From a virus (Duplodnaviria; Heunggongvirae; Uroviricota; Caudoviricetes): a stretch of DNA of 25,720 nt. Position numbers and translations under genes: made by a program. How positions within the stretch are numbered: position 1 is the first letter of the stretch; the number at the start of each line of letters is the position of its first letter. The notes under the pieces were generated by a model that saw only the letters and a list, made by a program, of their open reading frames with translations, was not told where the DNA came from and made no database searches. Below, piece after piece: positions 23,752 to 24,896 of this stretch. The DNA lies in the IMG/VR virus record IMGVR_UViG_2531839527_000012; one strand, written 5' to 3'.

Positions 23752-24368
23752 TGGCATTCAGAATGAGTGAACAATCACGTACTGTAAAAATTTATAACCT
23801 GCTGGCCGGAACTAATGAGTTTATTGGTGAAGGTGACGCATATATTCCACCTCATACAGGGCTGCCAGCCAATTCTACAGATATCGCCCCACCGGAAATT
23901 CCTGCTGGCTTTGTGGCAGTTTTTAACAGTGAAAATGAATCGTGGAATATTGTTGAAGACCATCGTGGTAAAACGGTCTATGACGTGGCATCGGGGGACG
24001 CGTTGTTTATTTCTGAACCCGGACCGCTACCAGAGAATGTCACCTGGTTGTCGCCAGCAGGGGAGTATCAGAAGTGGGACGGCGTATCCTGGGTGAAGGA
24101 TGAGGAAGCAGAAAAACTGTTTCGGATACGGGAAGCGGAAGAGAAAAAGGCAAGGTTGATCCAGGAAGCAACAGATAACATCGCAATTCTGCAGGATGCA
24201 GTTAATCTTGAAATAGCAACAAACGAGGAAAATTCACAACTGGATTCCTGGAGAAAATACAGAGTATTAGTGAGTAGAATTGACACCAGTACAGCTCCGG
24301 ATGTCGTATGGCCAGAGCTGATGAATCAGGGTTATGTGCGGGAGGACGAGCAGATAACTTCAGACTGA
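23751..24368 (+). CDS. Tail fibre assembly protein (P2 gpG / Tfa family)
   Basis: 205 aa; ATG overlaps the H stop (TAATG). Assigned by position immediately after the tail fibre gene; family membership not verified. Confidence 0.7.
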
Positions 24369-24896
24369 AATTTAGTGATGAATGTTGAATCATCTGGAAT
24401 ATCATGCAATACCAATGCATGAGCACCTATTGTGACATTGTTTCCTATACGCACTTTGCCACCAAGAATGGTGGCATTACAACCAATGGTCACATTATGT
24501 CCTATAACAATATCCATATCATTAAAATCACCACGCAGCCCAATAGTTACCCCTGGTTTTATTGAACAATTTTCACCGATTGTTACTTTGTGACCGATAA
24601 CAACACTGTTGAGATAAGAAATATCATCGGGCATTATCTGAACATAAAACACTATCAGTAAGTTGGAGTCACTACCCAAGAATGAAACGTTCTATTTTCC
24701 CCGCAATCTTCCGGCAGTATCCGCCTTTATCAAAAAGGTATTTGGCTATGCGCCACCAAAATAAATAACGAAGTCTTCTATGTTTTATTGCGCGAACAAT
24801 TGCCTTTCGCCAGGAGAAAGGACGCTCGCTACCGATTACTTCATAGTGAATACAGTCTTTAAGTTCATTAATATTCATATCTCTATTATTCAGCAT
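24332..24896 (-). pseudogene. Hexapeptide-repeat (left-handed beta-helix) acetyltransferase, AT-rich, split by one frameshift
   Basis: Two overlapping minus-strand ORFs (24672-24896 and 24332-24679). The downstream ORF has tandem hexapeptide repeats (VIGHKVTIGENCSI, IVIGHNVTIGCNATI, VRIGNNVTIGAHALV); the upstream ORF has an N-terminal RLRYLFWWRIAKYLF segment. Both read ...FILG / ...FLGSDS around 24672-24680. Visibly more AT-rich than flanking phage genes. Confidence 0.7.

Follow-up and report, generated by a model that had tools for sequence, protein, structure and literature searches.

The window that we analyzed is the whole of IMG/VR virus record IMGVR_UViG_2531839527_000012, a stretch of 25,720 nucleotides (nt) from a P2-like prophage of Escherichia coli. 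On its minus strand, at 24332..24896, is an interrupted gene for a hexapeptide-repeat acetyltransferase. The gene is horizontally acquired accessory cargo (a moron) of the prophage, and it travels as a unit with the tail fiber assembly gene (G of phage P2, or tfa) that it overlaps. On balance, we favor the explanation that it encodes a tail-fiber-linked sugar acetyltransferase and that its reading frame is broken, in this record, by a chimeric tract of the insertion sequence IS1.

The gene was identified from two minus-strand open reading frames (ORFs), a match to the Hexapep family in Pfam, and alignment to intact alleles. The two ORFs jointly cover exactly 24332-24896. The N-terminal one (24672..24896) has 74 amino acids (aa) and corresponds to a helical domain, and the C-terminal one (24332..24679) has 115 aa and carries the Hexapep match (PF00132, E = 4.9e-13). 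A sequence-only reading of the window had placed a hexapeptide acetyltransferase across this interval, and both the ORFs and the family match bear this out. Intact alleles are 564 nt long and encode 187 aa if counted from the ATG at 24896. RefSeq starts them at the ATG at 24878, which gives a protein of 181 aa (one such intact protein is WP_001447286.1).

The gene is paired with tail fiber modules

The tail fiber assembly gene of the window (23751..24368, plus strand; Caudo_TAP, E = 3.8e-39) is preceded by a tail fiber gene with a collar domain. As the sequence-only reading had it, the acetyltransferase gene lies on the opposite strand, converges with tfa, and overlaps its 3' end: the last 37 nt are common to both genes (24332-24368). 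Annotations of intact copies show this overlap as well, in phage vB_EcoM-613R2, in the enterotoxigenic E. coli (ETEC) strain E1739, and in plasmid EC11 p2.

The association between the two genes is consistent. In all 105 of the complete genomes that have this tfa allele and the gene for the tail protein gpU within joining distance of each other, the acetyltransferase gene lies between them. The unit of tfa and acetyltransferase is also present in phage vB_EcoM-613R2 and in 58 plasmid records, which are mostly of the size of phage-plasmids, at about 47-50 kb or about 95-100 kb. The plasmids of about 47-50 kb that carry the unit contain P2-like baseplate genes and RepA. In one of these, the phage-plasmid EC11 p2 (about 47 kb), the unit is accompanied by a remnant (93 nt) of the gpU gene's 3' end, directly before repA (locus L014, 6159-6251). 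This remnant marks the transfer of the unit from a P2-like prophage.

More distant homologs often have the same arrangement. Homologs with 37-53% identity are convergent with tfa and lie directly after it in Hafnia phage yong2, in the P1-like phage-plasmid JL22, in Citrobacter phage phiNP, and in a prophage of E. coli O157:H7. A clade that is 48-50% identical sits at the end of a prophage beside the integrase instead. Two homologs had contexts that were either uninformative or unlinked to phage: P0014 is on a metagenome contig beside a transposase gene, and P0015 belongs to a trio of tandem hexapeptide genes within a chromosomal island. In Enterobacteriaceae bacterium BIT-l23, a 52%-identical homolog comes first in a tandem array of three hexapeptide-repeat genes on a chromosomal island (locus L010, 8001-9697), with no phage genes nearby.

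The acetyltransferase gene itself is not new, as it is widespread and has generic names in RefSeq. It belongs to a functionally uncharacterized family that has a conserved pairing with tail fiber modules. The family is spread, together with modules of tail fiber and chaperone genes, across many enterobacterial temperate phages and phage-plasmids, including the prophages of ETEC and of O157:H7. In an analysis of the P1-like phage-plasmid JL22, the presence of the acetyltransferase gene was called unexplained (PMC9603915).

Foreign composition and a variable site

The gene's composition is distinct from that of the rest of the prophage, as the sequence-only reading had claimed. Its GC content is 38.4%, versus 52.6% for the window (z = -3.2, from 42 non-overlapping segments of 565 nt), and the 565-nt segment with the lowest GC content in the whole sequence begins at 24368. 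At third codon positions, the GC fraction (GC3) is 0.29-0.36 for the acetyltransferase gene, and five phage genes have values of 0.42-0.64. AT-richness is greatest in the 100 nt upstream of the start of the acetyltransferase gene (27-34% GC). We conclude that the gene was acquired horizontally because of its GC content of 38%. Close homologs are found only in the Enterobacteriaceae, and identity then falls to about 30-45%. Two more patches of low GC content (565-nt segments at 42% GC or less) lie near the integrase and regulatory end of the prophage, at 30-1025 and 2725-3717 of the window.

The gene is also accessory in its distribution. The gpU gene is present in about 1,430 genomes and the acetyltransferase gene in only about 105-150. 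The slot downstream of G has different content in the P2-like prophage of UTI89. In the P2-like prophage of O157:H7, the slot after tfa holds an acetyltransferase gene that is 37% identical, in the same convergent position. Furthermore, inactivated alleles exist: IS1 has inserted into the gene in five of the complete ETEC genomes, and strain 1190 has a frameshifted copy. The foreign composition, the variable content of the junction, and the tolerance of carriers for loss of the gene all agree with the earlier proposal of an accessory moron at the tail fiber locus.

Several related loci have features of their own. The junction between G and U in UTI89 (locus L012, 1339-3972) contains an inverted second tfa, an alternative C-terminus for the fiber, and a recombinase gene. 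Where the window has the acetyltransferase gene, UTI89 thus has a host-range switch that can invert. The P2-like prophage of O157:H7 has a gene for a macro-domain protein between the tail fiber gene and tfa (locus L013, 1739-2641). The copy of the acetyltransferase gene in strain 1190 is genuinely frameshifted according to RefSeq (locus L026, 1933-2477). The prophage of K_EC180 is heavily deleted, with a capsid gene fused to tail fiber remnants, and its acetyltransferase gene is still intact (locus L025, 367-1352).

The sequence-only reading also assigned the gene to the Z/fun hotspot of P2. Part of this stands: the gene is in a variable cargo site downstream of G. However, the site is between G and gpU, not between G and FI. 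The block FI-FII-E-T-U is inverted in this prophage lineage, which leaves the cargo slot flanked by G and gpU. Among the complete genomes that we searched, none had this tfa allele directly beside gpU and lacked the acetyltransferase gene. No such empty site was available to map the borders of the cargo.

A piece of IS1 breaks the reading frame

The sequence-only reading attributed the interruption of the gene to one frameshift. Alignment to intact alleles replaces this with a different lesion: a 50-nt tract from the right end of IS1 stands where the intact gene has 49 nt of its own (codons 74-90, DKYNVTVPLTVNIGKGF), for a net gain of 1 nt. Except for this 49-to-50-nt block, the window is collinear with the intact alleles.

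The tract (24627..24676, plus strand) consists of the last 50 nt of IS1 (IS1 nt 719-768), as found by megablast, by an exact suffix match, and by alignment. If the shared TCA at 24624-24626 is counted, then the identity to IS1 extends to 53 nt, and the IS1 copy of strain L1_E925 has exactly these 53 nt at its right end. When we compared the region to phages with megablast, we found one full-length match and many matches between 24624-24683 and the right end of IS1. The terminal inverted repeat of IS1 (23 nt, 24654-24676) occurs once in the window. It also contains the TAG that ends the 74-aa ORF. Residues 1-18 of the 115-aa ORF are translated IS1. The left-handed beta-helix (hexapeptide-repeat) part of the protein is encoded at 24332..24626 on the minus strand, with 100% identity to the intact allele of E1739.

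Five complete ETEC genomes (L1_E925, E8, E54, E1648, and E1654) have a complete 768-bp IS1 in the same gene. A complete IS1 has two terminal repeats, insA and insB, and a 9-bp target duplication, whereas the window has only the 50-nt right end. In the ETEC genomes, the 9-bp duplication CAAGAATGA flanks the complete IS1, and the IS1 tract of the window abuts exactly this sequence. The copy in the window (24677..24685) is the one remaining copy of the duplication; both copies flank IS1 in the IS1-bearing locus L003. In L003 and in other assemblies, the 74-aa product is followed by a complete IS1. We did not find a complete IS1 in the window: only IS1 nt 719-768 and one CAAGAATGA are present, with no left end and no transposase gene.

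The alignment to intact alleles excludes a simple single-base frameshift. More broadly, it is extremely improbable that this is an otherwise intact gene with a single-base frameshift, whether by mutation or by sequencing error. The net length difference from intact alleles is indeed +1 nt, the contig has many single-base errors, and strain 1190 has a truly frameshifted allele. But the 50-nt block is 100% IS1 and is unrelated to the 49 nt that it replaced, and the remaining errors in the contig are all deletions, with no insertions among them.

Assembly chimera or IS1 scar

The window comes from a draft assembly of E. coli BCE030_MS-09 (GCA_000356385.1, contig APXN01000063.1). From comparisons to other assembled alleles, we consider it likely that the IS1 tract is an assembly chimera of two copies of the gene, one intact and one broken by IS1. 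In the draft consensus, the intact copy would have been joined to reads or to a contig of a second, IS1-interrupted copy. If so, then the genome probably has both an intact and an IS1-broken copy in place of the hybrid.

The haplotypes around the junction are among the observations that suggest this. We refer to the sequences from E1739, K_EC180, and strain 1190 as haplotype A. Haplotype B is our name for the sequences from L1_E925, from an O6:H16 strain's second prophage, and from all of the IS1-bearing contigs, whether from drafts or from metagenomes. From 23700 to 24626, the window is haplotype A, with 100% identity to E1739 and 9 single-nucleotide polymorphisms (SNPs) relative to B, the nearest of which is 72 nt from the junction. 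The next 342 nt (24627..24968), which are the proposed chimeric segment, are 100% identical to haplotype B and have 4 SNPs relative to A. Haplotype A resumes at 24969 and continues to the end of the window. The IS1-bearing contigs are all haplotype B throughout. That a genome could have two copies is plausible, as a related O6:H16 ETEC genome has two modules of H, tfa, and acetyltransferase in two P2-like prophages.

The hybrid junction, in which AAATATCA is joined directly to TCGGGCATT, was found in none of 5,426 complete E. coli genomes, and the exact string is also absent from collections of metagenomes and of species-representative genomes; nor did any plasmid or phage that was searched have it. 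The ORF that is specific to the hybrid was found on one contig only, and no other assembly that we searched encodes it. Several drafts, four of them with neighboring accessions, have the B-type N-terminal fragment followed by an IS1 that is complete or is truncated by the end of the contig. Where such contigs continue past IS1, they continue into unrelated DNA (hsdR or an integrase gene). At loci L016 (4015-6225) and L017 (4143-5144), from two other drafts with neighboring accessions, the gene-interrupting IS1 is followed by type I restriction hsdR or by an integrase gene and not by the remainder of the gene. These arrangements reflect either IS1-mediated rearrangements or mis-joins through IS1.

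Errors are frequent in this contig. It has 35 unpaired deletions of 1 nt, and no insertions, relative to the E1739 prophage, to which it is 98-100% identical. The deletions are clustered at 14158-14414, 15103-15493, 16027-16031, 17345, 20565-20672, and 21497-21580. These deletions break the genes N (capsid), M (small terminase), L (head completion), the tail gene I, and the tail fiber gene H, which is split into 21096-21512 and 21715-23751. The consensus of the contig is demonstrably unreliable. The deletions look like errors in a draft consensus and not like decay of the prophage. We considered whether the clusters might be read overhangs from a second, internally deleted prophage, and did not adopt this, as the clusters are near but not at the deletion end-points (15606 and 20784) of the one such prophage that was mapped.

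The other explanation for the tract is a genuine IS1 scar, which we judge to be somewhat unlikely. Under this explanation, IS1 inserted as it did in the ETEC strains and was later lost, leaving a solo right end and a true pseudogene. The left end of IS1, 49 nt of the gene, and one of the two target duplications would have been lost together, through an illegitimate deletion of 776 nt or through an illegitimate recombination, facilitated by homology, between two copies of the prophage. A complete IS1 of the same variant is indeed present at the same site and in the same orientation in the five complete genomes and in several drafts; the junction has a microhomology (TCA) of the kind that is typical of an illegitimate join; and the surroundings are clean, with no other indels between 24300 and 25100.

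The scar is harder to reconcile with the length of the tract and with its flanks. Relative to the IS1-bearing allele, the window is short by 776 nt, and IS1 plus one duplication is 777 nt, so the size of the deletion must have matched that of the insertion to within 1 nt by chance. Because 49 nt were swapped for 50 nt, the flanks stay in register. This match would be expected if the sequence of an IS1-interrupted copy had been laid by position over an intact copy; if a deletion in the living cell had produced it, the odds of such a coincidence would be roughly 1 in 100 or lower. Also, the left flank is not of the IS1-bearing haplotype even 72 nt away, so a second recombination exactly at the junction would be needed. 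Finally, the allele is unique to one low-quality draft contig.

Some observations do not favor an assembly chimera. The chimera is read from an assembled consensus, and we do not name the step at which the assembler abutted the two sequences. Illegitimate recombination in vivo would be compatible, too, with a switch that is clean and has a microhomology of 3 nt (TCA). And the 74-aa N-terminal ORF is on only one contig of the assembly, with no separate second copy found. On the present record, the gene in the window is best counted neither as a frameshifted pseudogene nor as a scar of IS1. Consensus errors make an apparently functional P2-like prophage look decayed.

The intact protein resembles serine acetyltransferases

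The best explanation for the intact protein, given its sequence matches, is that it is a cytoplasmic, serine-acetyltransferase-like acetyltransferase with a left-handed beta-helix and a length of 181-187 aa. The intact protein matches Hexapep with E = 1.1e-12, and both this match and that of the ORF in the window are above the 27-bit cut-off. The best relatives with solved structures are serine acetyltransferases (6wye, E = 6e-12). End to end, the protein matches PHROG 2154 (E = 4e-79), which is annotated as having unknown function. These homology searches did not point to a structural role in the phage, and this agrees with the sequence-only reading, which had treated the gene as an enzyme.

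The closest characterized families are CysE and its short relatives from polysaccharide clusters, EpsC and WcaB. As in these families, an N-terminal helical domain is predicted to be followed by a left-handed beta-helix, and these families gave the best sequence matches. But the scores are far below the cut-offs of the models. The NCBIfam model for EpsC gave 80.7 bits versus a cut-off of 150 (E = 9.5e-23). For CysE, model TIGR01172 gave 70.5 bits versus a cut-off of 210.65 (E = 1.6e-19) and model NF008349 gave 44.2 bits versus a cut-off of 397. The models for WcaB gave 62.2 bits versus 196 and 59.8 bits versus 194.65 (E = 3.8e-17). There is also a weak match to 2wlc, a chain described as polysialic acid O-acetyltransferase (E = 0.0024).

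In serine acetyltransferases such as CysE, the catalytic residues are an Asp-His pair and the His of a DRH motif, as established from structures of CysE. In the HMMER alignment to 6wye, the protein has Thr where that enzyme has its catalytic Asp, Tyr in place of its catalytic His, and Asp in place of the His of DRH. We conclude that the protein is not a CysE because these residues are replaced, and for the same reason its mechanism cannot simply be assumed from CysE. The Tyr lies in the motif DISYLNS, at about 24600-24620 on the minus strand of the window. It is conserved in all seven of the aligned sequences with at least 53% identity, and in Hafnia phage yong2. The His is kept in every more distant relative that we aligned, including ESSI2_ev015, phiNP, the O157:H7 prophage, JL22, and the relatives from polysaccharide clusters that are discussed below.

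The replacement of these residues is one of several results that weigh against our reading of the protein as an acetyltransferase of this kind. Among the curated families of NCBIfam, the intact protein is far below every cut-off. AlphaFold2 predicted a confident N-terminal four-helix domain, but its confidence was moderate overall (mean pLDDT of 76, with 57-78 in the beta-helix). When we compared the model to the Protein Data Bank (PDB) with Foldseek, serine acetyltransferases ranked first, with E-values of 0.04 or worse, which are not significant. We left the AlphaFold2 model out of our analysis of the active site.

A putative role in modifying surface sugars

We propose that the enzyme, with acetyl-CoA as the donor, O-acetylates a sugar on the cytoplasmic side, and that this sugar belongs to a surface polysaccharide or to a lipid-linked precursor of one. 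This would alter the receptor that is seen by the linked tail fiber and would lead to lysogenic conversion or to superinfection exclusion. Such a role in surface-sugar O-acetylation is plausible given the gene's context and by analogy with known conversion enzymes. The sequence-only reading had likewise suggested surface-polysaccharide modification or lysogenic conversion, and this suggestion is supported indirectly, by the polysaccharide clusters around distant relatives and by the travel of the gene with tail fiber modules.

The distant relatives of the protein are consistent with this proposal. The cluster at about 97% identity has 783 member sequences, and there are a few enterobacterial clades at 41-75% identity. 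Below those clades, the relatives are mostly unnamed proteins of about 160-200 aa with 30-45% identity, and the few that are named or that we traced are from Flavobacterium or from a sediment metagenome. Two relatives with about 30% identity (P0089 and P0025; one is from Flavobacterium, the other from a sediment metagenome) are encoded inside polysaccharide clusters. These clusters contain glycosyltransferases of families GT1, GT2, GT4, and GT11, a Wzx-type flippase, a UDP-glucose dehydrogenase, and a sugar epimerase. An ancestry as a sugar O-acetyltransferase is therefore supported.

It is quite unlikely, in our judgment, that the protein is something other than an acetyltransferase for surface sugars. 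It could be a serine O-acetyltransferase for cysteine metabolism, it could acetylate a small molecule or a protein (a xenobiotic, a toxin, or a target in defense or counter-defense), or it could have a non-catalytic role. Databases do name members of the family "serine acetyltransferase," and the best matches in the PDB and NCBIfam are to CysE and EpsC. There are also weak matches to the xenobiotic acetyltransferases Vat and CatB, and the change from His to Tyr at the catalytic position in this clade would fit another function as well. However, the score for CysE is 70 bits against a cut-off of 210 bits, and the catalytic Asp and His of CysE are missing; the non-phage relatives are in polysaccharide clusters; and the conserved pairing with tail fiber modules favors a role that is related to the receptor.

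A function in defense would be in keeping with the cargo sites of P2, which are reservoirs of anti-phage systems (PMC9122126). But no family among the defense models of PADLOC-DB matched the protein at E-values of up to 0.1, and we rejected an assignment to a defense system for this reason. The two papers on the hotspots of P2 that were consulted (one of them PMC9122126) do not mention an acetyltransferase.

Two other observations count against our proposal for the function. The carriers that are named with a serotype differ (O6:H16 and O139:H1), and a single target that is specific to one O-antigen is therefore unlikely. And the evidence for a promoter is weak, as promoter-like sites are not enriched in the region, with 5 found versus 3.4 expected.

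We also considered a broader hypothesis, which we advance tentatively and regard as rather unlikely. In this hypothesis, the serine-acetyltransferase-like beta-helix family would be a dedicated partner of tail fibers, conserved in the order of tail fiber gene, tfa, and convergent acetyltransferase gene across P2-like phages, P1-like phages, other temperate phages, and phage-plasmids, and would mask the receptor of the phage's own fiber; the clade with Tyr in place of His would have some other chemistry, or none. If it is true that the receptor of the phage's own fiber is modified, then this would affect host range, superinfection exclusion, and perhaps surface antigenicity. It would be a modest addition to what is known of lysogenic conversion.

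Neighboring genes and expression signals

A promoter-like site (TAGAAA, a spacer of 17 nt, and TACAAT) is at 24918..24946 on the minus strand, 22 nt upstream of the ATG at 24896. The gpU tail gene (25067..25561, minus strand; Phage_P2_GpU, E = 5.5e-39) is upstream of the acetyltransferase gene on the same strand. Directly after the stop codon of gpU there is a GC-rich hairpin (an inverted repeat at 25014..25065, minus strand; -22.5 kcal/mol, z = -2.5), which is not followed by a clear U-tract. The late tail operon runs in the same direction as the acetyltransferase gene, and the hairpin may limit read-through from this operon and so insulate the acetyltransferase gene. We did not find an intrinsic terminator downstream of the acetyltransferase gene, inside tfa.

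The complete genome of ETEC E1739 holds the same prophage. Q and P are on the minus strand, and they are followed by a run of genes on the plus strand: O, N, M, L, X, the lysis genes, R, S, V, W, J, I, H, and G. After G, there is a run on the minus strand: the acetyltransferase gene, U, T, E and its frameshift product, FII, and FI. Beyond FI are D and ogr, with an hxsABCD cassette (His-Xaa-Ser radical SAM) between the two; a hok/gef gene follows the cassette (locus L004, 20378-23775). This cassette is a second cargo site of the prophage lineage, and it is outside of the window.

Comparison to known systems

The closest precedent for this gene, in logic and in position, is NeaT of E. coli CFT073. 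NeaT is an acyltransferase from prophage phi-b0847 with a tested phenotype, in that it affects fitness in bacteraemia models (PMC3573123). In both cases, a single accessory gene for an acyltransferase or acetyltransferase is found in a P2-like prophage, in a variable site just downstream of G and on the opposite strand from it. Both genes are strongly AT-rich and unameliorated, are rare in E. coli, and have relatives that are mainly outside of the Proteobacteria. However, NeaT is a membrane protein of the Acyl_transf_3 family (PF01757), whereas the enzyme described here is a soluble hexapeptide-repeat protein, and the two folds are unrelated. The tested phenotype is that of NeaT, and the other neighbor of the gene is gpU here instead of FI.

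A further precedent is NeuO of phage CUS-3, a phage-borne hexapeptide O-acetyltransferase of a surface polysaccharide. Like the gene described here, the genes for NeuO and for Oac of phage Sf6 are cargo of temperate phages near genes for the tail or for attachment. The surface-polysaccharide acetylation that these two enzymes carry out changes the serotype or the adsorption of phage, and acetylation of this kind is our working model for the enzyme described here. The differences are that Oac is a membrane acyltransferase (PMC3630932) and that the similarity of the present family to polysialic acid enzymes is marginal.

The site itself resembles the Z/fun site of P2 (moron position 2 of Wiles et al.), which is a variable and non-essential slot right after G, between G and FI (PMC3573123). 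As at Z/fun, the slot here is directly downstream of G and its content varies among relatives. Unlike at Z/fun, the slot is flanked by G and gpU, and the gene within it has no similarity to fun(Z).

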